NCBI GenBank assembly: GCA_963666285.1 | Contig: OY762711.1 | DNA from: Sedimentisphaerales bacterium | GTDB lineage: Bacteria; Planctomycetota; Phycisphaerae; Sedimentisphaerales; SM23-30 | DNA: 64,000 nt | Direction: 5' to 3' (one strand) | In this document: positions 1 to 61,140 of the stretch, piece by piece | Layout of the letters: every line of letters begins with the position of its first letter | Position numbering within the stretch: the first letter of the stretch is position 1 | The notes under the pieces: generated by a model | Told to the model about the DNA's origin: nothing | Seen by the model: only the letters and a program-made list of their open reading frames with translations | The model's database searches: none | Position numbers and translations under genes: made by a program

Positions 1-1
1 G

Positions 2-400
2 GGTAAAACAGGTAAAGTATTAGCCGTTTCTACCTTATGGACAATTACAAAAAAACTTTTAAAACAATACCTGAAAGACAAAAAAGATAAAAGCCCGTAT
101 GTATTTATTTCAAGACTTGGAATACCACATAGCCCCAAAGGTATAACTACTGCATTTGACAAGACTATTAGAAAAAACGCCAAAGTTTCAAAGGATGTTA
201 AGTTCAACCACCTACGAGACACATTTGCTACTTTGGCACAAGATGCAGGCTTTTCTATCGAACAAATCAACCTCGTGTTAGGACACAAAAACAAAGGAAT
301 GAACGACCGATACGCTGCTCGCCAAGCAAAACAACTAACAAGTAAAATATGCAATTCAGTAGAAGATGAGTTCTTTTCTTCAAACAAAATAAAAAAATAA
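2..400 (+). CDS. Tyrosine recombinase/integrase, C-terminal part (5' truncated by window)
   Basis: Frame 2 translates ...FNHLRDTFATLAQDAGFSIEQINLVLGHKNKGMNDRYAARQ...; HxxR, LGH and catalytic Y motifs; not in ORF track. Confidence 0.9.
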   Translation, partial: GKTGKVLAVSTLWTITKKLLKQYLKDKKDKSPYVFISRLGIPHSPKGITTAFDKTIRKNAKVSKDVKFNHLRDTFATLAQDAGFSIEQINLVLGHKNKGMNDRYAARQAKQLTSKICNSVEDEFFSSNKIKK

Positions 401-590
401 CCACTATATTTTAATTATTGAATAAATAATGCTGTAAGTAAAAGTCAGTTTGAGTCTGACGCAGAATTGACGCAGGGAATGACCTATATCGATTATTCTA
501 TTACTGGTGGCAGTGATGCTCCACGTAGTGGCATAAGTTGTTTCCTGTTGTTTGATAACTACAATGTAATTTATCAATATTAAATTAAAG

Positions 591-1151
591 TTACTTTATG
601 GCACATTCAATGATATAATTGGGAAAATCGTGAATTGCTTCATCTAACATCTCACCTAACTGAAATATTCTTTTCATTTTGTCGGAACTAAGTTCACTTA
701 ATTTAATTATTGAATATCTATTTAATATATTATTAGGGCTGCTATGAGAATATTCGACCAATATTCCACAATCAATATCAGTATTTGGCAAAGTAAATAA
801 TCTAACTTTACCGAAAGGTTTACTATTAAGTTTAACCTGATTTATACTCTCTTGTTTTGCCTTTGATGGTGCAGGTATTGTAACTTTTGTTCCTCCAGAT
901 TCAATACTATTACCAACTTCATAATTTGAATTAGCTGGGATGAACTTCGACTCAGAACCGCCAATAATCTCACAAAAGAATAGCCGATTTTCATAAAAAC
1001 CTAAATCGTTCAATTGCTTACCTACTTCATCTTCTTCCATTCCTTTTATCAAAACCAGTTGTTTTTTTTCATTGATTTCTAATCTACTATCATTGTCAGA
1101 CATGCAACCAGATATATTAATTAAAGCAAATAATAATATAAAGAATCTCAT
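591..1151 (-). CDS. Lipoprotein, candidate immunity protein for upstream RHS toxin
   Basis: Signal peptide with ISG-C lipobox; directly downstream of RHS-core gene. Confidence 0.55.
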   Translation of the reverse strand: MRFFILLFALINISGCMSDNDSRLEINEKKQLVLIKGMEEDEVGKQLNDLGFYENRLFFCEIIGGSESKFIPANSNYEVGNSIESGGTKVTIPAPSKAKQESINQVKLNSKPFGKVRLFTLPNTDIDCGILVEYSHSSPNNILNRYSIIKLSELSSDKMKRIFQLGEMLDEAIHDFPNYIIECAIK

Positions 1152-1179
1152 ATCGTCCTTTCATTATCATATTATGAAA

Positions 1180-2121
1180 TTAGTATTGTAAATAAGGTTT
1201 AGCATCACCCCAATCCTCATCTCCTACCCAATTTGGCGAACATTTTAAACCAAGATATTTACCATTATTATCATACATAAATTGACACCCCTCACCTTTA
1301 TTATTAATATAAAAATTGGGAGTATATGGGTGTTCACTATCTGAAAATACACCAGGACCAAACCCATGCCACGGGTCAAGCCTAAGAGAACATTCTCCCT
1401 CCGGCTCATTTATGCTTCCGACTGAAACGGTTACCCAGTTATGGATTACTGCAATTGGTTCATCAATTTGAGTTGTTCTTGAAGTCCCAGAACGGAGAGA
1501 TTTAAAGCAATTGAAATCTTTCTGTAGTGGAGCTAATGCATTATAAGTATGTGTTCTCCAGTGGTAACACATCCAACCACAATGGCTGTCACCATAAGTT
1601 TGTCCTGCCGTTGATGGTCCTGTTCCTTCAGGAACTTGTGAACGATAATACGAGTTCTCGTTTTCAGCCATTTGGTTCCACATAGCAACATAAGCCCGAG
1701 CTATCTGCATTGCCTCACTTTCACATTTTGGCTTTGTGCATCCTTCTCCGGCATTACATACACAGCTATCCTTACAAGCTGACTTTAATTTATTGTATAC
1801 ATTGCTTACTTGTGGGCTTATTTGTGGACCAATAAATTGTGGTTCATTTTGGGTAAAAGGATTATTCCACCAGCTATCAGGAATGATAGGATCTGGATTT
1901 GGAAAGACTGTAGGATTAGCATTCCCTGCAAATGATGTAAGTCCCATAGGGTCTGAATGTGAAATCGGATTTCCTTTAACATATTCATACATATTCATAC
2001 CATCAGCATATCCAATAGGGTCCTGCTGCTGAAATCTACCTGTTTTAGGGTTGTAAACACCAAATAGATAACTGTTTAAGATAACCGATATTAGAAAAAC
2101 TATAAGAATTGTATTTTTCAT
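1180..2121 (-). CDS. Short RHS repeat-associated core protein with signal peptide and Cys-rich C-terminal toxin-like tip
   Basis: YNPKTGRFQQQDPIGYADGMNMYEYVKGNPISHSDPMGL matches the RHS core end motif PxxxxDPxG. Confidence 0.85.
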   Translation of the reverse strand: MKNTILIVFLISVILNSYLFGVYNPKTGRFQQQDPIGYADGMNMYEYVKGNPISHSDPMGLTSFAGNANPTVFPNPDPIIPDSWWNNPFTQNEPQFIGPQISPQVSNVYNKLKSACKDSCVCNAGEGCTKPKCESEAMQIARAYVAMWNQMAENENSYYRSQVPEGTGPSTAGQTYGDSHCGWMCYHWRTHTYNALAPLQKDFNCFKSLRSGTSRTTQIDEPIAVIHNWVTVSVGSINEPEGECSLRLDPWHGFGPGVFSDSEHPYTPNFYINNKGEGCQFMYDNNGKYLGLKCSPNWVGDEDWGDAKPYLQY

Positions 2122-2150
2122 AACATACCTCTCAAAATCATAATGTATAA

Positions 2151-3131
2151 CTATTTTCGTAATTCTGGCTTGTATTTAAATATTTCTTCACGTGCAATAA
2201 CAAATATACATTTTTGTCTATTTAGAGTTGGCATTAGATTGTTGGCATAAGCAAACATTATTTGTGCTTCGTTTTTATTACCAGTATCCGCCAAAAGGTG
2301 TCCACGAGTCTCCAGGAACAAGGCTAATTCATCCTTGGGGGTTAGAGATTTCAAGTAATGATTATCTTTTATTTCTGCCTCAGATACTCTTGCTGGAAAT
2401 GATTTATAATAGCTATCAGGGTGACTATCACACCCACCTCGGCAACAAGCTTCAAAGTTGATAACTTCTTTTCCATCGTCCCAACGAAAGAATACGTGTT
2501 CTCTGGTAGTAACAAGTTTCAAAGGATAGCCAAGTCTTCGACCAACAGCCACGCAGGTTATTGGGATAGATACACAGCCACCTTCTTTTTTACCTGTTAG
2601 GCAACCGTGAATAAAGTGGTCCTTTGAGTCAAGAAAGTCTCGACTTTTCATTATGTCCAGATTGTAATTAACACCGATAGTATTCTTTAAGAATAATATC
2701 ATATTAACAATTTTATATAAAATGACTGAATTATCATACTTAGCCGAATATTGTGAGAAGTATGGAAGCCTTTTTTCCATATCAATTCTGGCTTGTTCTG
2801 CCCAATCATCAAGGATACTCATACATTGATCTATGTTAAGATTCTCTGAACCTTGCAGACCTTGAGCACAAATCAGATTAACTTTGGCTATGTCAATATT
2901 AGCCAATTGGTCTTCTGAGAGTAAAATAAGGTCAGAAACAGAAGATGGGTTCTTTATTGATGAATTATCTTCATTGGGCTGATTATCTGAAGCAATGGAA
3001 ATAGCATATAAAGCTGTTGCAAATCCAGCAGTTACGATAAAAGCTATCAATAATCTTGAAAATGTTTCCTTCTGACCAGCATTTTCAGTTGGATTTTCTT
3101 TTTGTTTATTTTTATTCCCAGTAGGTTTCAT
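2151..3131 (-). CDS. Transglutaminase-like (SirB1-type) membrane-anchored protein
   Basis: GGCVSIP...VGRRLGYPLKLVTTREHVFFRW motif (Cys/His), N-terminal TM helix. Confidence 0.7.
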   Translation of the reverse strand: MKPTGNKNKQKENPTENAGQKETFSRLLIAFIVTAGFATALYAISIASDNQPNEDNSSIKNPSSVSDLILLSEDQLANIDIAKVNLICAQGLQGSENLNIDQCMSILDDWAEQARIDMEKRLPYFSQYSAKYDNSVILYKIVNMILFLKNTIGVNYNLDIMKSRDFLDSKDHFIHGCLTGKKEGGCVSIPITCVAVGRRLGYPLKLVTTREHVFFRWDDGKEVINFEACCRGGCDSHPDSYYKSFPARVSEAEIKDNHYLKSLTPKDELALFLETRGHLLADTGNKNEAQIMFAYANNLMPTLNRQKCIFVIAREEIFKYKPELRK

Positions 3132-3906
3132 CTAAATACTATAAAAATCTCAATTACCTATGCTTATTATTGTATTTCAAAAAAACGCTATAAAAACAGG
3201 AAAATAAAAGAATTAGGAAAGGTTCTTTCCCTAATATTGCAATCCCTATTTTCATAAAGCAATACTAGTTTATCCCTATATAGATGTCAATATATTTCAC
3301 CACTTTTTTCAGGTAAAATCAGGATAATTTGCCTATTTTAGACAAAGCTTAACCTGTTCTGCTATTTTTATTATTTTCCAGTCTCCCAGTGGCCCAGTCG
3401 AACAAGTCGAAATTGAGCCTCTCTATTGTGGTTGGATACCTTATGCCTGATAAACAGGGTATGGGGTATAGGGGGAGCCAGAATAACTTTTTTCTAAGTC
3501 ACAATTATTTTATTTTTTTCAGTTTCAAAACTATCTTACTCAAGAAAAATCCATCGATACCTACCCAAATCAGAATAAATATTTTTCTGAAAATGATAAT
3601 AATAATATTTATTATTTTTCAAAACATAGATTTAAAGGTTTTTAAAGGTTTTAGAGCCAATATGCCCTTATATGGGCAATAACGGGCTTTTATGTCCTGA
3701 AAAATTATATCTGCCATATGTCTTGGGCAGTTATGCCCAAAATTGCCATAGTGAAATGGCATCTATGGCATATATTGCCACAGGGAAAACAGGTGCCCAA
3801 TCCAACCTATAGAGGATAAGGTCAGATTATGCCCATTATTGGGCTATAAATGAGGCTATTTATAATTGAATAGGTGCCCTGATGGACTGTAGTTGGAATA
3901 GGCACC

Positions 3907-4500
3907 TTAGGCAGATAGTTGCTTGGTCTGTTTCAGGGCAGTATAGACGGTCTGCCTGGAGCAATTCAAGTGACGGGCTATGCCACTGACTGACATACCT
4001 TGGCTCTTGAGGGATATAATCTCATCATAATTGTATTGTGGCACAGAGCCACCAAGTAGGACACCTTTTTGCCTTGCCCTTTGAAGACCACGGACGATGT
4101 TCTCCCTGATATTCTGCCGTTCCATTTCGGCAATACCTAATAAGAGGCTCATTATCATCCTGCCCACTGCCCCTGACAGGTCAAAGTTTTGGGCAATAGC
4201 AATGACCCTGATGTCCTGTTCGAGCCAATCGACCAACAGGTTGATACCGTCCTTGAGACTACGGGACAAACGGTCCAATTTCCATACGACTACAGTATCG
4301 ACCCTGCCCCTGAATATATCATTTTGAAGTTTTTTCAATGATGGACGGTCGAGATTACTACCTGTCTGCCTGTCTTCATAGACCTTGTAATTGGTTATGC
4401 CGTGGTTACGGCAATACTCAAGAATAGAAGCCTCCTGACTGTCCAAACCTGAACCTTGTTTTAGTGTGCTGACCCTGACATATATGGCTGTATATTTCAT
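3907..4500 (-). CDS. Serine recombinase (resolvase/invertase) with C-terminal HTH
   Basis: YVRVST, VVVWKLDRLSRS, C-terminal IARHLNCSRQTVY. Confidence 0.95.
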   Translation of the reverse strand: MKYTAIYVRVSTLKQGSGLDSQEASILEYCRNHGITNYKVYEDRQTGSNLDRPSLKKLQNDIFRGRVDTVVVWKLDRLSRSLKDGINLLVDWLEQDIRVIAIAQNFDLSGAVGRMIMSLLLGIAEMERQNIRENIVRGLQRARQKGVLLGGSVPQYNYDEIISLKSQGMSVSGIARHLNCSRQTVYTALKQTKQLSA

Positions 4501-4772
4501 TCAGTTGGCTCCTTCCTGCCTGATGACTCTATGCAATATTCTATGTGGCTCTGAATTATACTTGGCATCTGATACCAATTTATAACTTGTTCATTATTGA
4601 ATGAGCCTTGTTCAAAGTCGGCATCATCAATGCCGAAATACTGTCCCCAATGACTGAAACCATTTGGACAGTCAGGATTGCTACTCAATAATAAACAGGT
4701 TCCATCATAGAAATAAATGGTATATCTATCTTGAACATTATTTTTTGATTTGGTTATTGCTCTGATAATCAT
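4497..4772 (-). CDS. Hypothetical protein
   Basis: ORF overlapping the resolvase start by 4 nt, operon-like. Confidence 0.6.
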   Translation of the reverse strand: MIIRAITKSKNNVQDRYTIYFYDGTCLLLSSNPDCPNGFSHWGQYFGIDDADFEQGSFNNEQVINWYQMPSIIQSHIEYCIESSGRKEPTE

Positions 4773-4784
4773 TGATAATTCTTT

Positions 4785-5543
4785 CTAAAATGGTATTTCA
4801 TCATTATATATGTTGTTATTGTGTTCTTCTATCCTGATTGCCTTTTTGACAAGGCTTGTGGTCAGGTTATTTGTTTGTTCTGATTTGAGTATTGTCAGAC
4901 AGGTTTTAACTGTTTGAATGACACTCCTGATGCCTGTTTTATCTGAAATTATATGGCTTACTATGTTTTGCTTATATTCTATTCCGCAGAAATTTAAATA
5001 TTGCCTGACAACCTTGTCATAATAGTCTTGTGAGTGAGGCTTCAGGTAGATTGTATTATTAGTTGCTTTGGCAATTGGCTCTGATACGTGATTGATATGG
5101 TATGCTGTTAAAATTATTATACCATTGCAATGAATGATAGTTGGCTCTCTGCCCCTGAAGAAATGTGGGCAGGCTCCAAGGGACAGATACTTCCAAAGGT
5201 TTGCCTCACCAATCTTTTTGTTACGGTCCAAATCTTCGATGATGTGTGCCGTATATGGCATACTATAGTCAAAGAAATTAAACGATTGAGTCCCACATTC
5301 AAGGTGGTGATACTTACATATCCTGATGTCAGTTGAGTTGATGCTATTGGCAAAGCATTGAGCTACAAAATCTTTACCGGCGCCGATTAGTAGTAGGGAA
5401 GGCAACCTATCGGTAGAGCCATTGTTAATGGCATTGGCTATACTTTTAAGTTGCTCTATCCCTATACAATCAGTTTGTGGCAGAGTCCAAAGATTGCTAT
5501 GTGCCATATACAGGCTATGGTCTTTGTTTATTTGTTCTGCCAT
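4785..5543 (-). CDS. Degenerate AAA+/RuvB-like protein with acidic DEIPF C-terminal tail
   Basis: LPSLLLIGAGK resembles a shortened Walker A region; ends IYNDEIPF. Confidence 0.45.
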   Translation of the reverse strand: MAEQINKDHSLYMAHSNLWTLPQTDCIGIEQLKSIANAINNGSTDRLPSLLLIGAGKDFVAQCFANSINSTDIRICKYHHLECGTQSFNFFDYSMPYTAHIIEDLDRNKKIGEANLWKYLSLGACPHFFRGREPTIIHCNGIIILTAYHINHVSEPIAKATNNTIYLKPHSQDYYDKVVRQYLNFCGIEYKQNIVSHIISDKTGIRSVIQTVKTCLTILKSEQTNNLTTSLVKKAIRIEEHNNNIYNDEIPF

Positions 5544-5552
5544 ATAGACTTG

Positions 5553-5693
5553 TTAAACCTCAAAGGCTGCCGTGATTTTGGCATCAGGATGCCTCATCTT
5601 AATTATTTGCCGTGCCTTGTGTATGCTATCAGCACATACAACTTCCTGAAACGGCTTGCCATCTACAATATAATGCACTTCAAAACTTTTCAT
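5553..5693 (-). CDS. Small hypothetical protein (46 aa, MKSFEVHYIVDGKPFQEVVCADSIHKARQIIKMRHPDAKITAAFEV)
   Basis: Manually translated; GGAG RBS upstream; fills the gap between co-oriented island genes; below ORF-track cutoff. Confidence 0.6.
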   Translation of the reverse strand: MKSFEVHYIVDGKPFQEVVCADSIHKARQIIKMRHPDAKITAAFEV

Positions 5694-5713
5694 TTTAATT
5701 ACATCTCCAAAAA

Positions 5714-5911
5714 TTATGCTGTTAATTTTATAACTGAATTACCTTGGATCCTTGGCAACTTATACTCTTGATAATAGTTATATAAGGCTATGGCATATAA
5801 TGACTCTTGCTCTTGACTATTTAAATTCTTGGCAAGGTTGCCATTGAATATGGCATTATTATCTTTATTTATTTGTCTTTCATACCATTGAATTGTCTTT
5901 GTTTTCGCCAT
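5714..5911 (-). CDS. Hypothetical protein
   Basis: ORF with GAGG RBS in the island operon. Confidence 0.55.
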   Translation of the reverse strand: MAKTKTIQWYERQINKDNNAIFNGNLAKNLNSQEQESLYAIALYNYYQEYKLPRIQGNSVIKLTA

Positions 5912-6030
5912 TTTTGAGCCTCATTTTATTGTGTTTTTATCTTCGCCTGAAAAAATGTTCTACTCTGGTTAATAGCAATAAAAAAGACAGTTGACTAAAT
6001 GAAGAACTAACTGCCTCGGAGATGTATATG

Positions 6031-6552
6031 CTACTGATTAAAGACATTCAATATCTTTACCTTGGCACGATAATGCCGTTTTTTAACAGCATCTATTGAT
6101 ATGTTCAACTCTGTTGCTATTTCTTTGTAATTCATCCCTGACCGATGAGAAACAAACGCCATGTGTTCCTTGGATGTCAGATTTGCCTTCATAATAATTT
6201 CAACTACTTCAGCCATACAGATATCGAAGCAAAAATGTTTATCAGATTTTTCAGTCATTTCTTTTAAATAAACAGATTGTTTAATTTGACCATCTAACCA
6301 TTCACTTAGAATATCTTTCAACTTGTTGTTGAGCACTTTGTATGAGTAGGATTGTGGGTATTCGACCTTCTTACCTTGCTTGAAATTACGTTCAACTACA
6401 GACAGAAACCTGACCTTCAGTTCAGACTTTATATCATTTTTATCTGTATCTGTTAAATAATATTTTTGGATACTGTCATAAAACTGATTTGATATGAAAC
6501 TCTTGTAATAACCATAATACTTTAAATATTCCCACTTCAATTTATCACTCAA
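6031..6552 (-). CDS. ECF-type sigma factor-like protein (sigma-70 region 4)
   Basis: GMNYKEIATELNISIDAVKKRHYRAK region-4 HTH. Confidence 0.75.
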   Translation of the reverse strand: MSDKLKWEYLKYYGYYKSFISNQFYDSIQKYYLTDTDKNDIKSELKVRFLSVVERNFKQGKKVEYPQSYSYKVLNNKLKDILSEWLDGQIKQSVYLKEMTEKSDKHFCFDICMAEVVEIIMKANLTSKEHMAFVSHRSGMNYKEIATELNISIDAVKKRHYRAKVKILNVFNQ

Positions 6553-7548
6553 TTTACATCAACTCCACACCTGAAATCTGTTGCTATTCAGGTTCCATAC
6601 TAACCATTGTTACAGTGTAAGTATAACAAAATGTTTTTCACTTTTCAACGAAAATCGCCTATTTTAACATTTTCGGGAAAGATAATACCTGTGACCTGTG
6701 GATCCTGTCAAGCCTTGTTAGGCTAATTGAAATGAATTATCATTGTATATAAACATTGAAAGAAAAAATAAAAGATAAGGTATGCTATCGCCGCTGTCGA
6801 AGACAGTGGGGGTCAATTTTCGATTTGCTTTAGCAAATTGAAAGTTGCAGTTAAGTCAGTAGCCTTGTTATCTACCTATTTTCATTTTTTCACAGAAGAA
6901 GAATATTAGGTATGTCAGTTATTCCTGTTATACCTGTAAAGTCTAAATGGCAGGCATTTAGACCACACCACACTTCGTGTCGTGTGTTATTTTTATTGTT
7001 TTTTTAATCTTTTCAGGTTTTCAGTCCCTAAGGTTCCTTAGTAACTATCAATAGTTATTATATATAGACCCCAAAAGGGTCAAAATCGGGACATATAATT
7101 TTAATTATTTCTGAAAAATATTTGATTGTTGATAGTGATGGGCAAGTGTGGCAGAATGCCACACAGCCCTTGGTCTCTTATAGGGACAGGTTTAAATTCT
7201 CTTCATATTGAGCCAGGACTGTCTGTATCCCCAGAGGGCGCATAGCACCTGTAAAAGAAATAGGATTATCCGGGAGCAATCTCGTGGCTCCGGTGGTAAG
7301 TTGAAAGATAGAGCCAACACTTGCAATGTAAAATTGCTTTACATCACCTACAATAATAAGGCTCAACATAGTAAAAAGCCTCATAAACTTTCCTTGTATA
7401 AAGAAGATAGATAGGCTATCATTATTGAAATAATAAATGCAATGTCTATGAGGATAATTGATTAAAAACATTAGCACATTCACATAGCACATTGCCAAAT
7501 ATTGAAAATATAACTTTTTATTTAATAAATAGTTATAAAATGTCGGAT

Positions 7549-7576
7549 TGGGTTCGATTCCCATTCGCCTCCGCCA
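7549..7576 (+). tRNA. selC: 3' fragment of tRNA-Sec (att site duplication; not an intact tRNA)
   Basis: TGGG-TTCGATT-CCCATTCGCCTCC-GCCA: 13 nt between T-loop and G73, i.e. 8/5 acceptor/T arm of bacterial tRNA-Sec; no tRNA 5' half upstream. Confidence 0.8.
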
Positions 7577-7605
7577 TTTTTTAATTTGGAAACCGTAAAT
7601 AAAAA

Positions 7606-7869
7606 ATGAACAAGAAATTAAGACAAATAATAACTTCAATCCTGCTTGTTATTGGTCTGGCATTGCTGGTATATGGACAATTTGTAAAATCCTATACCGT
7701 TCTTAGTAAAGAAGGCGATGCGACTTCTGCCGATCCTGAAACAATGATAGTCAAGGATGTCACCATCCATGGTGTTGACCGTAACGCGGAAGGCGAGTTA
7801 TTTAGAACTTACTCGACTAAGGAAGGAGCAGCTCCGCCCCCGGATGACTGCCCTACCTGAGGCAGCTAA
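7606..7869 (+). CDS. Membrane-anchored small protein, predicted selenoprotein with C-terminal CPT-U-GS (CxxU)
   Basis: N-terminal TM helix; TGA 7858-7860 follows CPT and is followed by GGC AGC TAA; SECIS-like fold at 7864-7893. Confidence 0.65.
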
Positions 7870-7893
7870 CAGGAGGCTGTGGTGTCCATGGCT
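7864..7893 (+). promoter_or_regulatory. Candidate SECIS element for TGA 7858
   Basis: AGCTA-aca-GGA-g-GC-[TGTG]-GT-g-TCC-a-TGGCT fold; loop begins 17 nt after UGA with G in second position. Confidence 0.45.
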
Positions 7894-8709
7894 AAAGAAA
7901 GCAAGCTACACAACTTTGCTCTAAAACTTATCCCTCACCGACTTTGGGTCCAAACAGCATTTCTGCTGGTCTGGCTCGACCCGCTGGCATTGCGTATGCA
8001 CACAGCCTGTGCACCTGTGTTCCATTGTTATGCATGTCCGCTGGCAACTTTTGCCTGCCCGGTTGGCGTTATTGCACAATTTACCGCATTACACCTTTTC
8101 CCTTTCCTTGCTATAGGTCTGATACTTAGCCTGGGCGCCTTGCTCGGCTCGATTATCTGCGGATGGATGTGCCCGTTTGGTTTACTGCAGGATCTGGCGG
8201 CAAAAATTCCAATACCACGTTTCAAAATCCCGCAATGGATGGGCTATGGTCGATATATCGTATTGCTGGGTACAGTCATTCTTATCCCTTATATATGGGG
8301 AAGCGAACATAGTCTTTTTATATGTAGAGTATGCCCAATCGGAGCAATAGAAGGTGCAGGTCCTGATATTGTAACAGCTGCTGCAAATGGTTCAGAAATT
8401 GTATGGCCAAACGCCTTAAAGATGACAATTACAATCGTAGTAGTAGTCGCCATGTTTGTTTCGATAAGGCCCTGGTGCCGCGTATTATGCCCGTTGGGAG
8501 CAATATTTGGATTTATGAATCGATTCTCACTGTTCTCAATGAACCTGAAAGAGTCAAACTGCACTCAATGCGGCCACTGTCATACACTATGCACCTACGG
8601 TGTTGAGCCGGAAAAAGACTCCAACAGCGACAATTGCATACGATGTCTGGAATGTACCAAATGCAAGCCGGGAGCTCTTCAATCAGGTCACATTTTTGAG
8701 AAAGAATAG
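7879..8709 (+). CDS. Membrane 4Fe-4S binding protein (NapH/MauN/RdxA-like polyferredoxin)
   Basis: CYACPLATFACP, CGWMCPFG, CRVLCPLG, CTQCGHCHTLC, CIRCLEC motifs with TM helices. Confidence 0.9.
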   Translation: MVSMAKESKLHNFALKLIPHRLWVQTAFLLVWLDPLALRMHTACAPVFHCYACPLATFACPVGVIAQFTALHLFPFLAIGLILSLGALLGSIICGWMCPFGLLQDLAAKIPIPRFKIPQWMGYGRYIVLLGTVILIPYIWGSEHSLFICRVCPIGAIEGAGPDIVTAAANGSEIVWPNALKMTITIVVVVAMFVSIRPWCRVLCPLGAIFGFMNRFSLFSMNLKESNCTQCGHCHTLCTYGVEPEKDSNSDNCIRCLECTKCKPGALQSGHIFEKE

Positions 8710-8714
8710 ATCTC

Positions 8715-9848
8715 TTACCCTGTTGATTCTTCTGAGATTTGACTAATTGTGTCTAATACTGCTTCAGAATTGAGATTATCAGAATATCTAAACAATTCCA
8801 TGAACCTACAGTTCCAGAACTTGTTATTTATCAAAAATATCACAAACGGCAAACATAAAACAAAACAGGCAAAACCAAATATTAGTGCCATAAGCAATAC
8901 CTGCCAGATATAATCATCAATTTGCTGACTATTAGCCATTGCCTGTATAACAAATGCGGAAACGACAAATATTCCGGAAATTAAAATCATATTAACAAAT
9001 GTCAAGATGACGAACTTTATTGGCCTGAAACGCCTGCGACACATCCACCTGGTAACTATTATTCCCGACAAAACAACTCCGAATGCAATTAAGTAGACAA
9101 TAAATAGCTCTGCTTCCATGTCCCCGAAGCTCATTATTTCAAGTACGCCGAATGCGATAAATATAATAACAGTCAGGATAAAAACCAAAAAGCGATGCAC
9201 TTTTGCCAGCTTCTCAGACAATAGCCAACAGAAAACAAAACTGATAACTGTTGAGTTAACAATAATGTCAAAATATGTTCCAGATTGGCCAAGAGATACT
9301 ATTTTCAGGTATATCCACCATATCGCCAGCGCTATAACCATTGGCATAAGCAGCCATAAAGCTTTTCCTGTACGGTTTTCCTTGAGCAATATAAATCCAA
9401 CTGCAATAATCAACCACTTTACCATCCCAAGCAAAGCACTAAACGGACTGATATACACCTCAACCGGCCGGCCTTTAACTGGTCCCCAATCACCAATATT
9501 GTTACTTACCACAATTTGAATATTACCAAAAACATACCCAGGTATTCGCCACGAATACGAACTTAAGCCTCCTCAACCATACTCAAATTTACCGGTACCT
9601 AATTTTAAATTCCCTTTATATATTTCAAACGTTGGCTTCTGCCCTCTTTCAAACAGCCCTGAATTTTCATGAGCTTTTCCTAAGGTATCAAGAAGTTTAT
9701 ATTCCAGGGTAATATAACAGCCATTAATTCCAACCTCAACTGTATTATCCAAAGGCTTGCCAGGACTATCATCCGCAAGTAAACCAAAATTGATAGAAGA
9801 AATAAACAGAATAATAAATATAAATATTTTTTTCATAATCAAACACAC
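8715..9848 (-). CDS. Predicted selenoprotein: exported EYG-U-GG domain fused to a multi-TM domain (joins ORFs 9573..9848 and 8715..9512)
   Basis: TGA 9575-9573 is followed by 20 open codons GGLSSYSWRIPGYVFGNIQI in frame with the downstream ORF; SECIS hairpin 9542-9558; likely ATG start at 9836. Confidence 0.8.
9542..9558 (-). promoter_or_regulatory. SECIS upper stem-loop
   Basis: GTATTCG-[TGG]-CGAATAC perfect 7-bp stem starting 14 nt after UGA. Confidence 0.75.
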
Positions 9849-9858
9849 ATAAATTAAT

Positions 9859-11184
9859 TTATTTCAATTGATCTTCCAACTCGTCAATCGTAAAACCTTC
9901 TGCAGTAACCTTCAATTCAGAATCTGCTAATATCAGCCATGGTAAGCCTTTCAAACCAAGTTTGAATTTAGCATCATCCAGCTCTTTATTCAAAATGCAA
10001 GATTCAAATGGAACAGAATTATCTGATAACCATTTATCAATTTCCTCCTGGTCAATTTGTCCGTTATGTACCAGCACAGTATGAATACCCTTTGTTTCAA
10101 GTATTTCTTTTTTACCTGCCAGCTGTTTAATAAAATAACGGCTTGGTCTCTGTTGTATATCCCAGAAAAAGAGCAAAACAGGCTTGCCTGCTTCCAGGTT
10201 GGTTATGCCGTATTTAGTCATATCAGGCAAATTCTTACCGAGCAAAGAAGAAGGCTGTCTAGGCACAAAGCCTCCGTAAGACGGTTGTTCACTAACTACA
10301 AGAACAACATCCTCGGCACCACCTTCAGTTTCTATGTGGTTGTATAAATGCCTGCCATTACTTTGATAGTTAGCCTGAATATTCGCCCTGCCTGAACAAA
10401 CAGCTTCAAAAGTAAATTTCCCTTCTTCATCTGTTTGTTTGCCTTCATTTGGCTGGCCGCTGCCGTAGAGATAAACATTAACATTAGATATGCCTTTTCC
10501 ATCTTCGTCAACAACCTGACCGGATATTTTCATATCAGCAATACGTAAAATAGTATTATCCAGCTGAATAACCCTGCCTATTATACCTGGATCTGCCTCA
10601 CAGCTTATGTTGCCTGAACCATATCCTTTGACACTACTAATATTAATACTGTACCTATGAGATTCCGGTAAACATGATACAGCAAACTCACCGTTGGCAT
10701 CTGATTTGATTTTTGACTCGGTACGTTCAAAGCTGCACCCCCAACTATTGGACATAAGTGACAATGAAACTCTCGCACCTTCAAGTGGTTCGCTTTTTTC
10801 GTTAACAACTTTACCTTTTACAGAAAATCCTTTTGCCAGTGTGATGTCTGCAACTTTACTATCTACTGTAATTGAAGTTGAACCTGCCAGATTGTTACCA
10901 ATATCTCTGGCAATAACATACATCTCATCTTGCACCCAGCTATAATTACTGGGCTTCCAGTTTATTATATATTTACCATCTGCATCCGTTGTCACACTTC
11001 CCGGCACATAATAGTTCGGCATAAGATAAACAGCTGCTCCTTCAACCGGGCTGCCATCGGCATCTCTAACTATTCCAATTAGTTGAGAAGGAGCATTACG
11101 CTGCATTTCTCTGACCATTGGAGTCGCCTGATCAGCCAGTTCCATCCCTAACGACGATAACAAGATTAAAAATAACCTTAACAT
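9859..11184 (-). CDS. Secreted protein with carboxypeptidase regulatory-like (beta-sandwich) repeats and a C-terminal redoxin-like domain lacking CxxC
   Basis: Repeated GxVxDxxGxPVEGAxV units; GKPVLLFFWDIQQRPSR and GLPWLIL thioredoxin-fold pattern. Confidence 0.75.
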   Translation of the reverse strand: MLRLFLILLSSLGMELADQATPMVREMQRNAPSQLIGIVRDADGSPVEGAAVYLMPNYYVPGSVTTDADGKYIINWKPSNYSWVQDEMYVIARDIGNNLAGSTSITVDSKVADITLAKGFSVKGKVVNEKSEPLEGARVSLSLMSNSWGCSFERTESKIKSDANGEFAVSCLPESHRYSINISSVKGYGSGNISCEADPGIIGRVIQLDNTILRIADMKISGQVVDEDGKGISNVNVYLYGSGQPNEGKQTDEEGKFTFEAVCSGRANIQANYQSNGRHLYNHIETEGGAEDVVLVVSEQPSYGGFVPRQPSSLLGKNLPDMTKYGITNLEAGKPVLLFFWDIQQRPSRYFIKQLAGKKEILETKGIHTVLVHNGQIDQEEIDKWLSDNSVPFESCILNKELDDAKFKLGLKGLPWLILADSELKVTAEGFTIDELEDQLK

Positions 11185-11205
11185 AATAAATCCTTATCTT
11201 AAAAT

Positions 11206-11231
11206 AGCCCGGATCAATAATAATCCGGGCT
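11206..11231 (-). terminator. Intergenic hairpin (terminator or stabiliser)
   Basis: AGCCCGGAT...ATCCGGGCT 9-bp inverted repeat with A/T flanks. Confidence 0.55.
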
Positions 11232-11245
11232 TTATTAGAATGATT

Positions 11246-14140
11246 TTATTTCTTTTTACGTGTTGAAGAAACAACCGCAACAACAACCATAACTACAAAT
11301 ATAACTATTACAGCACTCAAGTTGAACTTCCTCTCCTGCCCGGCTTCGGGTTGAGATTCTGACTGTTCAGCCTGAATCGCTTCTTCGGCGGCCTCTTCGG
11401 CTACTTCTTGCACAGATTCGCCTTCTTCAACAAAACTTACATTCTCCAGCTTAACTTCATCCTGTTCAGCTGCGACAATCTTATTTTCCTTGAAAAGCGA
11501 TTCAACTTGTTCGGCACTTAAGGCATAGCCAAAAATATAAGCTTCATCGATAAGTCCCTTAAAGTTCCTCATTGTACGGCTATGATCAATTTTACCAAGA
11601 ACGAAATGTACCGGATCATCAAATTGCTTTTCGACATTATTAACAAAGCCTGCCAGCTGGCCATCAATATACAGATAATTACAACTACCGGAATTAACTA
11701 TAACTATATGGTGCCAGTTATTATCTGTATAGATTCCATTACCATTAATTGAATTACCACCTTCGTTACCAAAAGGTTTTCTATGAAGATATCTAATCCG
11801 ATCTTTGTAGATTTCCAGCAAAATACCGTGATTACCATGGCCGGTTGCTGCAACTATATCCATCGCTTCATCTGTACCACCATTCTTAATCCATACAGAA
11901 ATCGAATAATCTTTCGATATAGTTAACGGATCAGTAATATCAACATAATCATCCTTACCATCAAGCTGCAACGCTCCGCCAAACCGGCCTTTACCAGGAA
12001 GCCATTCAGGCTCCCCATTAAGAGTTCCATTAAACGAATTATTTTGATCTAACGCTACCGAACCACTCACTTCATCAAGAGACCAATGAGCAAGCTGGTC
12101 GCCTTTCGTCTCAAATGACCATACCGGGCCAACTGTTGTTTTTCCGGATTGGCTTACTTCATCAACACACCAGAAATAGATGGCATTAGGAATAAGTCCG
12201 CTGAAAGTCAGTTCAGGTTTCCCTTTAATGCTGCCTAGCAGCTCCATATTCTGTTTTGTATTGCCAAAATATATTTTATGTATAACTGAATCTTCACCTG
12301 CAGTCCATAATACCTTCATTTTTCGCTGAGAAGCGACATTTGCCCCATCCCAAGGCTCCGGATTACAGGCATTTGCCCCAAGCTCTTTATAAAATCGAAC
12401 TTCACTAATCCCTATTTGACCACTCTTATGCCAACTGGATGGATTATCAAAACGAACTTTTTGAGCGTCTACTGGATCTAACTTAACTACAACGGGCGAA
12501 TCATAATCGAAAGTACCCTCAGCCTTGTCAAATACAATATCCTGCTTAACAGATTTCCAACCTTCTTTTTCAGTCCACACGGAAACATCAGCCTTTGCAA
12601 TACCATAATCGACATAACCTGGCTTATTATAATTCCAGACGACTATAGAAGTAAGTTTCTGTGGTTCAGTAAAATCAAAAACAATACCTTCACTATATCT
12701 TTCGACATTTGACAGCCACATAGCTTCAGTGTCAGTATTATGCTCTATCAGATTATCTTGATCTACATCCAGAAGACCGCTGCCATCAATTACAGCATTC
12801 ATCCCTTTAGCTACAACGCCGGTAACCATCTCGCCATATACAGTTCTTTTACGGTTTTCAGGTTTTAATGTATAAATTTTTCCCCTTATATCAAAAGGAG
12901 AATCAATAACAGCTTCAGCAATAAATGGTCGTGCAACATTCTTAGGCTCTCGCCACGAGAGCGAACAAGTGCCACCTCAACCATATTCCAGACTAAAAGT
13001 CTGGTCATAGGTCCGATCCCTGTTGTATATCCTGACCTTTGGAGCATCAGGTCTGCTGCCCGATTTTGTCAAGCTTACAGACTCTCCATTATTACCTGAT
13101 AATTGGTGTCTGAAGTAATAACTACCATTTCCATAACTCACCGATAGGTTTGAAAATACATTTTCGCCTACATTCGATTTGGCAACAGCTCCCCGGCTAA
13201 TCTCAAATTCGTTGCTATTGGAATACCAGGTGGCTCCCATCTCCCAGTTTTTACCGGAATCATCTTTTGCTGTTTTCTGCCAGGAACGAACTCGATATTT
13301 ACCAACAGGTAAACTGATTTGGCCATCTTTTATATTGTCTCGTTTGAACAAACCATTCTGGCCGCAGCATACGATTGAATCGACATTAACCGGTACTTCC
13401 AGCTTACTGTATGCAACGTCATCTGCCGAAGTCAATTCGACAAATGCTCCGTCTTTTGAAACTTGCAGGTTATATAGTTTATTTTCATATTCAATATAAT
13501 TACCAACAAAAGTTTCATGCTTGGTTATGACATCACCTATAATTATTCTGTCACTGTCAAATGTTTCAGAAATATCATTAAATGTGCCATTCAGATTATA
13601 GTCAACTAGCGTAATTTTTGTTTTAACACCAGCTATATCAACAGTCCCTTCATACCAGCACCCAATCTGGGCATACAAACGCTCGTAATCTGCTCTGTAG
13701 GAATAATAATAAAAATTAATATGATATGTAACGATCCCATCATCTGTATCAAACAGCACAGGAATTCCGTTGAAGTTTACACGGTATTCATCTCTACGCT
13801 CACCCTGATATTTTTCATTTTCAGAAATAGAGCCGTCCCCATTAGAATCAAAATACATTAGATCGTATTTGCCATATTTCTTCTGACGATCCAGTATTAT
13901 CTGCCTTGATTTCTTCCCGGCCATCTCATGCTTCCAAACGGCATACCTTACATCATCTGTATTTAGTTTTGGTACTGTCATTTCTGACGGTTTTTCCTTT
14001 GAAAGCTCGATATTTTTTGTGTTCCCACCTATGATTTCTCTGGCCGTATCGGAACTGCAATATCGCAACCATTGAGGTGCAGAAAAAACTGTCGCAGTAA
14101 TTGAAAAAATAACCAATAAAAATAATGCCTTGATTTTCAC
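11246..14140 (-). CDS. Predicted 964-aa selenoprotein: signal peptide, EYG-U-GGTC domain, discoidin-like, LamG domains, C-terminal TM anchor (joins ORFs 12977..14140 and 11246..12829)
   Basis: TGA 12979-12977 is followed by 49 open codons GGTCSLSWREPKNV...YGE into the downstream ORF; SECIS hairpin 12946-12962; LamG motifs (GGALQLDGKDDYV, WHHIV, FKGLIDE). Confidence 0.82.
12946..12962 (-). promoter_or_regulatory. SECIS upper stem-loop
   Basis: GCTCTCG-[TGG]-CGAGAGC perfect 7-bp stem starting 14 nt after UGA; covaries with 9542-9558. Confidence 0.78.
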
Positions 14141-14615
14141 ATCAAACCACCTTCCTAATTATAGAAGCACTCAAATACTTCTGAACCTAAATAACTATTT
14201 TGCATTTATTGTATCAATTAACATTATTTATGCAAACCCTATTATTTTAATAGCTTACATAAATTCATCGCCAATTCCTTTCCATTTTATCAATATTCTA
14301 TATATACCAATAACAGTTGAAAATACCCGTTCGACCATGGTATAAATGATTAAATTATCATTACTTACCTCCCGAGCAATCGGACATAATCATACACAGC
14401 GTGTATACTATTTGACGTACTATAATCAAAAATGTTACAACTTTTTTTGCAAAAATATGAAAAATATACTACATAACTATTTTATATCTTTTCACTTAAG
14501 CAAAATAACTGTTTATTAGCTTTAACACCACTACCTACCCTATCAACAAAAATATTATATTATTCCAAAAAAATTCTTTTGACTGCCTGCTTTATTGTGA
14601 TATTATTTAAAAAAG

Positions 14616-14668
14616 TCAGGCAATTTGCCTGATATTATTTTGCCTGCATCTAAGGCAACTTGCCTTAG
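14616..14668. promoter_or_regulatory. Two palindromic operators (AGGCAA-N-TTGCCT) upstream of blaI-like gene
   Basis: TCAGGCAATTTGCCTGA 14616-14632 and CTAAGGCAACTTGCCTTAG 14650-14668, just downstream of TTGACT-N16-TATTAT (14579-14606). Confidence 0.6.
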
Positions 14669-14700
14669 AGTTATCAAAGCCAAAAAAATGGATATTATTA

Positions 14701-15081
14701 ATGAAAAACGATGCTAATCAAAACGTATCAGAAACTGAATTGACAATATTAAATGTATTATGGAACAGTCAGGAAGCCAGTATCAGAGATATAACTCATA
14801 ATATCTACGGCAACACTGATACCAGCAACTATAATACGGTTCAAAGCCTGATCAATCGACTGGAAAATAAGGGTTTTGTAGGCCGGGATAGAAGTGGTTT
14901 CGCCCATAAGTTCTTTGCACAAATAAAAAGGCAGGACTTTATTAACCGCCAGCTAACCGAAATAGCAGACAAAGTATGCGGAGGATCCTTTATGCCGCTT
15001 TTAACCAATCTTGTTAATAAAGCAGAGTTTACTGAAGACCAAAGAAACCAGCTTAAAAGGCTGATTGATCAAATAGACTAA
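14701..15081 (+). CDS. BlaI/MecI/CopY family transcriptional repressor
   Basis: SETELTILNVLW...TVQSLINRLENKGFV...CGGSFMPLL. Confidence 0.92.
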   Translation: MKNDANQNVSETELTILNVLWNSQEASIRDITHNIYGNTDTSNYNTVQSLINRLENKGFVGRDRSGFAHKFFAQIKRQDFINRQLTEIADKVCGGSFMPLLTNLVNKAEFTEDQRNQLKRLIDQID

Positions 15082-15106
15082 AATAACTCGCATTGAGAAC
15101 AATACA

Positions 15107-16846
15107 ATGGAAACTTTATTATATACGGCATTATCAAACACAATAATAGTAGCGATTATCGTATTATCAAATCTACTACTAACTCGAGTAATTAAAAATA
15201 AGCAGATTTTAGCAATACTATGGCTGGTTGCATTGGCCAAACTGTTAACCCCAGCCCTTTTCAACCTTCCAATAATCACCCTGCCAATAAACCAGGCTAA
15301 TGACCAGATACAGTTCAATATAGCATCAATACAACCAACTGACTTCGATAATGACAAATTGAATACGGGGTACAAAACCTCTATAACGCCATTAATGTTA
15401 GAAAAAACTCCACTGGATGATGCGATTAAACTTGATTGGCACACTATTCTCATTTCAATCTGGCTTGGAGGAGGTATTATTTTTATCTCATACAATTGTT
15501 ATAAAATATTTAATACTATTAACCTATTAAGAAAAGCTAACAAGCCGCCTCATTTCATTAAACAGGAGGCAGAAAAAATCGCTGACACACTTGGCCTGAA
15601 ATCTGCACCAAGGATTTTAATGTTAAACAAGCCTATTTCACCTTGCGTATGGGGACTCGGCAAAAAACCGACAATTATACTACCTACAGGCTTCTTCTTT
15701 AGCCTCTCTCGCAAGGATCAGGATTTAATATTAACTCATGAGATGGCACATATCAAACGCTATGATCATTTAATAAGATTCATCGAGTTTTTGGCATTAT
15801 CAATATACTGGTGGAATCCAATTGCCTGGTTGATATGTTTTAATGTCAGACAAAGCTCAGAAATTTGCTGTGATAACTATGTATTAAAATTATTTCCTCA
15901 GCAAGCCAAAACTTACGCGCGGGTTTTGGTACAGACAGTGGAATATATAGCTAATCGGCCGGTCTTTGCCTTTAGCAGCGGACTGACCAGGGAACCTTTT
16001 ATAAACAGGAGAATTAAAATGCTCAATAAAAATCAAACGGATAGATATTCAATAGCATCCTTATTATTTATTTTTGCTCTCGTTCTTACTCTGCCATTTT
16101 CTGTTTCAATAGCCACAGCCGAAGACACAAATATTGATGAGCTTAAAGAAAAAGTACTAAATTCACTGGAAGGCCAGGATGAAAAAGTACTGCAATCGAT
16201 AGAAATGGCATTTAATGAATACCAGAAAGAAGCAGTACAGGAAATACCCAATAATACAGATGCCGATAAAAGCCAACCAGACAATGAACAGCCTAAAGAG
16301 ACTGGAACAAAAGAACTTACTAAATCACTCTATAAGTCTATTAAAAAGCGGCTAATGTCTGGAAAAGATATTAATAATGGTAGTAACGAAACAAAAAATG
16401 ATGCAGCTGACAGCAAAAATGTCCAAACATTCAAAATCGGAAATTCTACAATTACTATAGCAACTGATTCTGATTGGTTAAATATAGCACAGCACCACAT
16501 CAATCAAATAGACAAAAGTAAATTGGAAAATCTAAAAAATGAAATAAATGAAAAACTGCAAAATAACTTCAAAAAGCTTAACAAGGAAATGGCTAATTTA
16601 ATAGATATTGACTTTGACGAGATAAGATTTAACTCGGAAAAGCAAAGAGAAATCTTAGAAAATGCTATAAAGTTAAAAGAACTTATTACCAGCGGAAATC
16701 TCAAAGAAAAAATATTCCAGGAAAAAGATGAAGTTATCACAGAACTTCATACAAAAATGGCTGATCTGGAAGAAAAGTACCAGCAACTTAAAAACGACCT
16801 GTATGGCCTCGACCAAAATATAAATAAGAAAATAGAGAAAGAATAA
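15107..16846 (+). CDS. M56 family (BlaR1-like) metallopeptidase sensor with coiled-coil C-terminus
   Basis: HEMAHIKRYD, YWWNPIAW, SEICCD; adjacent to BlaI. Confidence 0.92.
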   Translation: METLLYTALSNTIIVAIIVLSNLLLTRVIKNKQILAILWLVALAKLLTPALFNLPIITLPINQANDQIQFNIASIQPTDFDNDKLNTGYKTSITPLMLEKTPLDDAIKLDWHTILISIWLGGGIIFISYNCYKIFNTINLLRKANKPPHFIKQEAEKIADTLGLKSAPRILMLNKPISPCVWGLGKKPTIILPTGFFFSLSRKDQDLILTHEMAHIKRYDHLIRFIEFLALSIYWWNPIAWLICFNVRQSSEICCDNYVLKLFPQQAKTYARVLVQTVEYIANRPVFAFSSGLTREPFINRRIKMLNKNQTDRYSIASLLFIFALVLTLPFSVSIATAEDTNIDELKEKVLNSLEGQDEKVLQSIEMAFNEYQKEAVQEIPNNTDADKSQPDNEQPKETGTKELTKSLYKSIKKRLMSGKDINNGSNETKNDAADSKNVQTFKIGNSTITIATDSDWLNIAQHHINQIDKSKLENLKNEINEKLQNNFKKLNKEMANLIDIDFDEIRFNSEKQREILENAIKLKELITSGNLKEKIFQEKDEVITELHTKMADLEEKYQQLKNDLYGLDQNINKKIEKE

Positions 16847-34637: not shown

Positions 34638-35693
34638 ATGACAACATTTATAAATAATTTATGGGAAATAACGACCGAGCTGGCACCATGGCTGCTGTTT
34701 GGCCTGATATTAGCCGGGATACTACATATTTTGCTGCCAAGCAGTTTTGTCCGTAAACACCTTGGCCATGGCGGGATAGGTTCGATAATAAAGGCTGTAG
34801 CGATAGGTGTACCTATGCCGTTATGTTCGTGCGGAGTAATTCCTACTGCGATCGGATTGAAAAAAGACGGAGCTTCGGATGGCCCGGCAGTAGGTTTCCT
34901 GATCAGTACGCCGCAGACCGGACTTGACTCGATATTTGTCTCAGCGGGATTTCTGGGCTGGCCATTTGCGATATTCAAGGTATTGTCAGCTTTTGTTACC
35001 GGACTGATCGGCGGACTGCTGGTAAGTTTTTTTGATAAGCCAAAGGAACAAGATGAAATTGTAGAATCATGCGGCGGAGGATGCTGCAGCGAGGGCCACC
35101 AGGAAAATGTAAAGGAAGAAGTCAGTCCTAAAATCGAAAAGGAGAAATCCAAATTTTCCGAGATGTTGAGGTTTTCGCTGATGCTGCTGAGCGGTATATA
35201 TGTGTGGCTGGTAGTTGGCGTAATTTTGGCGGCGATAATAACAACCGCCCTGCCGGAAGGCAAACTAAGCGAATACGGCTGGACCAGCGGTATAACAGGC
35301 ATGCTGACAATGCTTGCGATCTCACTGCCGATGTATATCTGTGCGACAAGTTCTGTGCCACTGGCGGCATCGCTGGTAATGGCGGGTATGCCTACGGGTT
35401 CGGCACTGGTACTGCTGATGGCAGGTCCGGCAACGAATATAGCGACAATCGGAGCGATAGCTAAGGCGTTCGGCAAAAGAGTAACGACGATATACGTTCT
35501 GACAGTTGCCGTGATGAGCGTTTTGCTGGGTCTAGGTTTTGAAAAGGTAATCCAGGTGAGTAACGAACATATGGGGCATCACCATACACTGCCAGACTGG
35601 ATCAAGACAGGATCAGCGATTGTTCTTATCACCCTGCTAATATGGTTTGCGATAAAAGATTTAATATCACGAACTACCCGACAAAAGTTTTAA
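34638..35693 (+). CDS. DUF318/ArsP-type permease (SO_0444-like Cu/Zn efflux)
   Basis: PLCSCGVIP, FLISTPQTG, PMYICA, GPATN; Cys/His-rich loops. Confidence 0.85.
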   Translation: MTTFINNLWEITTELAPWLLFGLILAGILHILLPSSFVRKHLGHGGIGSIIKAVAIGVPMPLCSCGVIPTAIGLKKDGASDGPAVGFLISTPQTGLDSIFVSAGFLGWPFAIFKVLSAFVTGLIGGLLVSFFDKPKEQDEIVESCGGGCCSEGHQENVKEEVSPKIEKEKSKFSEMLRFSLMLLSGIYVWLVVGVILAAIITTALPEGKLSEYGWTSGITGMLTMLAISLPMYICATSSVPLAASLVMAGMPTGSALVLLMAGPATNIATIGAIAKAFGKRVTTIYVLTVAVMSVLLGLGFEKVIQVSNEHMGHHHTLPDWIKTGSAIVLITLLIWFAIKDLISRTTRQKF

Positions 35694-60919: not shown

Positions 60920-61140
60920 TCAACTGGCATTACAACAAGTTGTATCTGCGGCTATATTAGCGGAAACATTACGCTTTTTCAAATGAAATGAAAGATTTTG
61001 ACAGTTATTTTAATTCACAGGCATAAAACTAATATAAATGCATATTAATAGGAATAAGCGTAAATCGTTTTTCTGAAACAATTAAAAAGTGATTAATTAA
61101 CTTTAAAACAGAAATAATTTCGGAGCAAGAACAAAGAAAC

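Follow-up and report, generated by a model that had tools for sequence, protein, structure and literature searches.

Envelope genes of a conserved selenocysteine cluster in Sedimentisphaerales: predicted selenoproteins of uncatalogued families and a possible reducing line

The stretch of DNA analyzed here (the window) comprises 64,000 nucleotides of contig OY762711.1 of a Sedimentisphaerales bacterium (Planctomycetota; assembly GCA_963666285.1), and the genes in question are found at positions 7,549 to 16,846. They make up the envelope half of a gene cluster for selenocysteine (Sec) that is conserved, and in which a small membrane protein (A) and a membrane polyferredoxin (B) face a convergent operon encoding the proteins E, D and C. 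C and E share a domain of about 110 residues, the GUGG domain, which carries the motif Y/F-G-U-G-G-x-C and is predicted to be FN3/Ig-like. The UGA codons of this domain are very likely read as Sec. The gene layout proposed in the original prediction, made from the letters of the window, was recovered: a CxxU membrane-anchored protein precedes the polyferredoxin, and the operon holds two EYG-U proteins around the Cys-less redoxin-like D, with a single TGA, in E-Y-G-U-G-G, in each of E and C. Additionally, a hydrophobicity scan detected hydrophobic N-termini in A, C and E, in agreement with the signal peptides or transmembrane anchors attributed to the three predicted selenoproteins. The positions of the main features in the window are the following:

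7606-7869, + strand: protein A, 87-residue single-pass membrane protein and predicted selenoprotein, ending C-P-T-U-G-S-stop
7858-7860, + strand: in-frame TGA of A, codons reading C-P-T-TGA-G-S-TAA
7872-7887, + strand: weak hairpin 3' of the TGA of A, candidate selenocysteine insertion sequence (SECIS)
7879-8709, + strand: protein B, NapH/MauN-like membrane polyferredoxin
8715-9836, - strand: protein C, signal/anchor, GUGG domain (U88) and about seven hydrophobic segments
9573-9575, - strand: in-frame TGA of C
9542-9558, - strand: SECIS-like hairpin of C, 7-bp stem and TGG loop
9859-11184, - strand: protein D, three CarboxypepD_reg repeats and a thioredoxin-like fold without CxxC
11246-14140, - strand: protein E, signal peptide, all-beta module, GUGG domain, F5/8, LamG and C-terminal anchor
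12977-12979, - strand: in-frame TGA of E
12946-12962, - strand: SECIS-like hairpin of E, 7-bp stem and TGG loop

A search profile for the GUGG domain, built from three paralogs, matched 67 of 251 genomes of the order Sedimentisphaerales, with up to 10 copies per genome, and 41 of 281 genomes of the phylum Planctomycetota; the named loci belong to metagenome-assembled genomes of Sedimentisphaerales, Phycisphaerae and other planctomycetes. Seven intact copies and a broken one were found in the present genome. Exactly one TGA was present in 149 of the 150 order matches listed (281 matches in all), none of 77 TGA sites had an ATG within the 12 codons 3' of the TGA, and Cys was observed at U+4 in 73 of the 77 TGA members. 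Moreover, TGC occupied the place of TGA, and the downstream hairpin was missing, in the selA-negative genomes G075, G093 and G149, with five of the 11 domain-positive selA-negative order genomes examined and the other six lying in 240-840 contigs. Cys forms were likewise found in G327 and G431, two of the three selA-negative domain carriers of the phylum sample, and the Cys forms of genus g27 show a vicinal C-C. In the database, the profile reached 1,972 clusters (50% identity) at E 0.001, and the best 150 matches comprise 83 that stop immediately before U, 16 with Cys and 51 with another residue or a gap. An ESM Atlas search with a Cys-form homolog gave a best value of 0.89, which is a lead only.

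The hairpin that follows the TGA of GUGG genes begins 15 nt 3' of it and consists of a 7-bp stem with a TGG loop. Its covariation was evaluated on 66 of 80 sites, after exclusion of three Cys forms, seven near-duplicates and four sites with indels or divergent register. It was verified that 96.8% of the stem cells are paired (80.3 +/- 1.0 when shuffled) and that double changes number 74 (21.7 when shuffled), counts that kinship among the genomes inflates; controls in slid registers pair at 55% at most. Codon choice in the stem is also constrained, since all 59 Ser codons of the stem are TCG, the share elsewhere in the same open reading frames (ORFs) being 553 of 2,712 (20%), and Arg is encoded in the stem by CGA in 57 of 68 cases versus 251 of 2,221. 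In a genome-wide screen, 11 of 5,605 TGA-ended ORFs scored at least 7 and eight of these were GUGG copies, although the stem rule was derived from the family, so that the screen is not independent evidence. The bacterial SECIS consensus, a hairpin 16-37 nt downstream with a G in the loop, is described in the available part of PMC13188914, and the GUGG hairpin agrees with it in both respects. Altogether, the conserved TGA, the covarying hairpin and the Cys forms in selA-negative genomes indicate that these UGAs, whose decoding the original prediction took as its premise, are very likely not true stops.

Protein A has one N-terminal hydrophobic segment, and the motif C-[PA]-T-TGA was present in all 29 distinct A loci. 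In 28 of them two more residues separate the TGA from a stop, which comes at once in the remaining one, while the database homologs (120 of 120 listed, of 297) end at CxT. The TGG of its hairpin is invariant in the 29 homologs, 21-23 nt 3' of the TGA, and overlaps the likely start codon of B. Sec is likely in A as well, less firmly than in the GUGG domain. It was also observed that the candidate SECIS of A spans the ribosome-binding region and start codon of B, so the translation of B could be coupled to Sec read-through.

Protein B carries PF12801 and scores below the cut-off of TIGR02163, the NapH/MauN family (55.4 versus 213 bits). Its motifs comprise CxxCPx5CP and CxxCP loops, two CxxxCP motifs and 2x[4Fe-4S], and all of its 18 Cys are invariant among 56 homologs. 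Separately, a distant B homolog (39% identity) adjoins a DsbD_TM gene at G082:C84:35933-38068, in a genome without the GUGG domain.

The cluster was then delimited by its distribution. Across the 251 order genomes, 56 have both the domain and selA, 11 the domain only, one selA only and 183 neither, selA thus being present in 57. B orthologs above 50% identity were found in 59 genomes, all of them domain-positive, with two more distant matches set aside. The 29 best B loci were taken with 1.5-kb flanks. Upstream of B, A is present in all 29, selC in 20 and selD in 13; on the 3' side, 22 of the loci have a convergent gene of the C, D or E type. The maps of nine relatives contain selB, selA and GUGG genes, with C, E and D convergent to A-B in varying order, and in most of them a methyltransferase, a double-cubane reductase, two dehydratase-family genes and an activase precede selD-selC-A-B. 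The reductase of this block, over the cut-off of NF040772, is usually found between selA and selD; NF040772 matches occur in 47 of the order genomes, 46 of them domain-positive, and are missing in 15 of the 59 B-positive genomes. In the present genome the block sits apart, at C1:379444-384708, behind the broken GUGG copy, which keeps its hairpin (the two together being G000:C1:379222-384708, locus L133). In fact, the domain, the polyferredoxin, selA and the double-cubane reductase show nearly one shared profile in the order, and selA has a GUGG gene beside it both here and in the majority of the mapped relatives. The co-occurrence and co-location, with one another and with selA, selC and selD, on which the original prediction depended were found across families, through both profiling and neighborhood maps. 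At the level of the phylum co-occurrence is a weak test, because selA is present in 213 of 281 genomes (versus 57 of 251 in the order) and the domain in 41.

As regards other Sec-related genes, PF00384 (molybdopterin oxidoreductase) had no match in this genome nor in two of four relatives; in the remaining two it has matches, which are without internal stop. SelD of this genome is of the Cys type and reads C-G-S-K. This SelD (L001:15147-16778) is also extended at its N-terminus by a Cys-rich sequence, C-V-C-D-P-K-Q-P-C-P-C, and ends in a CMD/AhpD domain that contains CxxC. Before selD lies an SsuA/TauA-type ATP-binding cassette (ABC) transporter (L001:12184-15153) whose binding protein, with H-P-C-C-C, has a homolog in the G035 cluster; the transporter is a possible selenium or metal importer.

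Concerning the architecture of the operon proteins, C has about seven hydrophobic segments beyond the N-terminal one, and E has a hydrophobic N-terminus, a C-terminal anchor and the GUGG residues U388 and C392, while D shows no hydrophobic segment by the scan used for A, C and E. At the CxxC place of its thioredoxin-like fold D has a conserved D-x-x-Q-R-P-S-R, and Q-R-P-S was found at this site in 16 of 16 distinct sequences by motif search. D was considered as an active redoxin and rejected, having neither CxxC nor CxxU in the thioredoxin fold; it is predicted to be a redox-inert adaptor. The predicted structure of residues 21-430 of E is all-beta, with a mean predicted local distance difference test (pLDDT) of 91, and places U in an exposed loop of lower confidence between two strands; the strand that comes after begins with the Cys. 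The last 100 residues of the model resemble FN3/Ig sandwiches (best Z 9.3, root-mean-square deviation 2.8, 90 aligned). Foldseek on residues 21-430 returned nothing at E 0.001, barely probing the N-terminal 300 residues of E, and a PDB sequence search with the domain profile gave nothing under E 0.035. In many of the proteins the GUGG domain is C-terminal, the chain stopping about 42 residues past U, and it is carried on adhesin-like FN3, LamG and F5/8 scaffolds.

The remaining features of the window that touch the cluster are the following:

7549-7580, + strand: 32-bp duplicate of the selC 3' end, right attachment (att) site of an 8.65-kb island
14618-14665, no strand: two AGGCAA-N-TTGCCT palindromes at the blaI promoter
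14701-15081, + strand: BlaI, divergent from E
15107-16846, + strand: M56 peptidase, paired with BlaI
47783-49021, + strand: YMUNC gene, further predicted exported selenoprotein, TGA at 48149 and hairpin downstream

The original prediction read the 3' end of tRNA-Sec at 7549, directly before A. This had to be corrected, since neither ARAGORN nor Rfam detected a complete tRNA-Sec gene within the window and bases 7549-7580 are an exact 32-bp att copy of the selC 3' end. The selC gene proper (G000:C1:4446794-4446890) lies 8,686 bp upstream of this copy, and between them is an island of 8,654 bp (G000:C1:4446895-4455548, corresponding to window positions 1-7548 plus 1.1 kb ahead of the window) with 35% GC, a tyrosine integrase and a resolvase. 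It also encodes a sigma-70 region 4 protein and contains two further ORFs, one RHS-core-like (1180-2121) and one transglutaminase-like. The island splits selD-selC from A-B, and once it is removed the gene order is selD-selC-A-B, matching that of the relatives. On the upstream, selC side are selD and the ABC transporter and, divergently, a third gene of the F-G-U-G-G type, selA and selB, all four sel genes thus adjoining the window. Elsewhere in the window, an SO_0444 Cu/Zn efflux transporter (34638-35693, + strand), over the cut-off and without TGA, and a glycine riboswitch (60817-60923, - strand) ahead of glycine cleavage genes are ordinary.

The BlaI/M56 pair, predicted to be divergent from the operon, is present at 14701-16846; however, the BlaR1-type control ascribed to it was not upheld. 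By tblastn, the pair was recovered only at the own locus of this genome among 177 fetched loci, and it is absent from the maps of nine relatives, which carry the weight here because most of the 177 loci are short. The palindromes, likely BlaI auto-operators outside the Sec system, are located upstream of blaI at a distance of 35-85 bp, and E is about 480 bp away from them. There are five other M56 matches in this genome, and the pair beside the cluster was judged an incidental neighbor, in this genome only. Similarly, the suggestion that the system stands in for DsbD/CcdA does not hold, because DsbD_TM is retained in 249 of the 251 order genomes, with three matches in the present one.

Further candidate selenoproteins were also noted. 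The YMUNC protein is predicted to be exported, has a Y-M-U-N-C motif and a strong hairpin, and is possibly part of the system. Of five genomes searched, one (G257) has a homolog, reading Y-L-U-S-C, which is TGA-bearing, has the same hairpin and lies inside the sel cluster of that genome. No NCBIfam family was assigned to the YMUNC protein, nor a Pfam family to the G257 homolog, and 3' of the gene there are two Cys-rich small proteins and a radical SAM/SPASM gene. A dicodon screen for read-through ORFs detected five of the seven GUGG genes; as C, E and the YMUNC gene escaped it, its output is not the full selenoproteome. In addition, an FG-GAP repeat protein (L128:2754-4166, - strand; G000:C1:5547769) has an in-frame TGA in P-Y-G-U-C-I-G-F with a hairpin downstream, which makes it a candidate selenoprotein. 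Beside the cluster at two loci (L013:13702-15450, where it is fused to a multiheme cytochrome c, and L011:6797-7582), a deiodinase-like gene is split into two frames in line and is likely a further selenoprotein.

Regarding function, it is tentatively proposed, with somewhat less than even confidence, that A, B and the GUGG proteins form a dedicated reducing line from the cytoplasm to Sec domains outside the membrane; the trans-membrane relay of the original prediction fits this predicted anatomy. A redox reading is suggested by the two-chalcogen motifs in both A and the GUGG domain, by the invariance of the 18 Cys of B, by a clostridial B homolog that follows a CD1871A CXXC protein near a TlpA reductase gene, and by the position of U in a loop between two strands. 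The proposal starts from gene content, the conserved TGA, the covarying hairpin, the Cys forms and the linkage to selABCD, from which we infer the later steps. SelB would read the TGG-loop hairpin, resulting in Sec insertion in A and in each GUGG domain. Electrons would enter B at the C-terminal 2x[4Fe-4S] and reach the Cys-rich loops of the opposite face by way of the CxxxCP sites, the path across the membrane in the NapH/CcoG/MauN family. A, anchored beside B, would shuttle electrons on its C-terminal CxxU, and the U-G-G-x-C loop of the FN3-like domain would be reduced and act on envelope substrates, chosen presumably by the varied domains to which it is fused. The Cys-less thioredoxin fold of D could dock partners without catalysis. 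Such a line would run beside DsbD without replacing it, and BlaI/M56 would exert no control over it.

Several observations weigh against this proposal or against its Sec component. C of the window reads U-G-G-L-S, with Ser in place of the resolving Cys at U+4. TGA forms occur without a selA match in G247 and G250, each a single contig (87% and 90% complete), and in G318; those of G247 and G250 count against the Sec reading unless the assemblies lack selA. Cys was found in only 16 of the 67 database homologs that run through the site, so that the residue is often lost; among the 20 TGA sites scored in the phylum search, six are without the TGG hairpin. For A, a Cys form is absent among the 29 loci and 120 proteins, and the hairpin is weak and variable (-2 to -6 kcal/mol). 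The topology of B and the direction of electron flow are assumed by analogy with the NapH/CcoG/MauN family. The structural matches of the domain are generic FN3/Ig sandwiches, with redox proteins absent among them, and the genomes compared are related, not independent. Finally, as DsbD is already present, the need for a second line is unexplained.

Other explanations were considered for the same genes. Genuine termination at the UGAs, with the frames downstream being small genes of their own or remnants, would agree with the 83 database representatives ending just before U, with the A homologs ending at CxT and with the TGA forms of three selA-negative genomes. However, the codon is always TGA, no restart codon follows, the sequence is kept through the site, the hairpin covaries and Cys occupies the same column in selA-negative genomes, so that this explanation, against which the case is weaker for A alone, is barely credible. 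Hardly more plausible is the complete model of the original prediction, a DsbD/CcdA replacement switched on by BlaI/M56: the pair is indeed divergent from E in this genome, but it is missing from the loci of relatives, its operators are far from E, other M56 matches exist, and DsbD_TM is nearly universal in the order. A structural role, in which Sec would form a covalent link or a stabilizing selenenyl-sulfide in surface proteins that A-B only mature, is suggested by the frequently C-terminal domain on adhesin-like scaffolds; the exposed, lower-confidence loop holding U and the retention of costly Sec across a phylum make it very improbable.

More serious competition comes from two chemical roles. 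In the first, unlikely but the better founded, the system would handle soft metals or organometals: U-G-G-x-C and CxxU would bind metal at the surface, B would reduce it as CcoG does copper, and the double-cubane reductase and methyltransferase would process the compound inside, as proposed for SAO. The distribution of NF040772 and its usual position between selA and selD are consistent with this, as are the designation of CcoG/FixG as a Cu reductase, the vicinal C-C of genus g27 and the ABC transporter before selD, whose best or second-best match is to SAO subunits, with scores under the cut-off. Haft and Gwadz (10.1101/2022.07.06.499078, available part) tied double-cubane proteins to SAO; however, the same preprint shows a link of these proteins with SelD in general. 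Additionally, SaoB, SaoC, SaoL and SaoT were not seen in the maps (the families were not searched one by one), and a quarter of B-positive genomes lack the double-cubane match. In the second, which is improbable, exported Sec/Cys loops would capture selenite or selenide, and A-B with the double-cubane block would reduce it and feed SelD. The position of A-B directly after selD-selC, the GUGG gene beside selA, the Cys-type SelD and the absence of a molybdopterin oxidoreductase match in this genome speak for it; against it, the use of Sec to acquire selenium is a circular requirement, genomes that lack selA retain Cys forms, and the presence of up to 10 paralogs, on scaffolds of different kinds, points to many substrates.

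If the reducing line exists, it could belong to a new extracytoplasmic selenium pathway, in which the Fe-S conduit and the CxxU shuttle, drawing on ATP-driven double-cubane chemistry, would power a portable FN3-fold Sec module on up to 10 surface proteins per genome, and for which, instead of formate dehydrogenase, the Sec machinery would be kept in this order; as a whole this extension is doubtful. The analysis brings two further predicted selenoprotein families, perhaps a third, to the 119 already catalogued. The GUGG family is large, exported, modular and not of the thioredoxin fold, and over half of its best database matches are truncated at UGA. In a genome with a Cys-type SelD and without a molybdopterin oxidoreductase match, its seven intact genes are a candidate answer to why selABCD is retained in these planctomycetes, its short, strongly covarying hairpin is material for testing SECIS rules, and A-B offers a tractable model for the uncharacterized pairs of small CXXC proteins and polyferredoxins of anaerobes.

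With respect to existing catalogues, Pfam and NCBIfam r20 gave no match over the cut-off for the GUGG domain (57 members) or A (24 members), the matches being weak and the best at E 0.0002 (FlgD_ig). Identity with OS_HP2 (NF041425) was examined and rejected: four of the 57 GUGG members match it, at E 0.045 or worse, and the OS_HP2 matches in five genomes, under the cut-off, lie elsewhere than the GUGG loci. The 119-family table of the 2026 catalogue PMC13188914 contains neither motif in its available part, and the NCBIfam models of its G-U-x-G entries gave no match to GUGG. The available parts of PMC12013277, PMC13326102 and PMC1976440 contain nothing on either family, the first two making no mention of Planctomycetes, and a literature search covering main texts found neither family described; candidates may be listed in supplements.

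Among known systems, the closest likeness is the CD1871A CXXC and 4Fe-4S pair of Clostridia, in which a small single-pass protein with a C-terminal two-chalcogen motif directly precedes a B homolog (35% identity, E 1e-33, for the closest annotated plasmid homolog), as A precedes B. However, A is twice as long, carries CxxU, shows no significant similarity (E 0.16) and has no NCBIfam match; a thioredoxin-fold gene is near both pairs, D being without CxxC, unlike the clostridial TlpA. A literature search on CD1871A found no paper, and on that basis the clostridial pair is itself uncharacterized. B has PF12801, two CxxxCP motifs and the C-terminal 2x[4Fe-4S] in common with the polyferredoxins NapH, MauN, NosR and CcoG, and differs from them in its extra invariant Cys loops and in the absence of nap, mau and nos context. 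With DsbD/CcdA, whose N-domain (that of DsbD) is Ig-like, the proposed logic shares a membrane conduit, a small carrier and a beta-sandwich domain with a two-chalcogen loop; it differs in using an Fe-S instead of a thiol conduit and Sec, without sequence match, and both coexist. The DsbD N-domain was not among the 50 VIA structure matches listed, although the two domains may nonetheless be akin.

The UXX-star motif was reportedly defined by Haft and Tolstoy in 2025, and A resembles it by ending U-X-X-stop in 28 of 29 loci. No A member matched the UXX-star families NF041114, NF041211 and NF041212, listed in Table 1 of PMC13188914 (available part), at E up to 1. The SAO operon is likewise a single anaerobe locus with several selenoproteins and an adjacent double-cubane reductase and activase, and an SsuA/TauA-type transporter is shared with this genome; its selenoprotein families are other ones, and the transporter before selD scores 45 of the 300 bits required for SaoX, 142 of 295 for SaoP and 236 of 360 for SaoA. 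The SAO preprint (10.1101/2022.07.06.499078) makes no mention of Planctomycetes in its available part. Taken together, operons of selenoproteins and relays of reductant across membranes are already familiar as systems, and the present cluster is one built from uncatalogued families.

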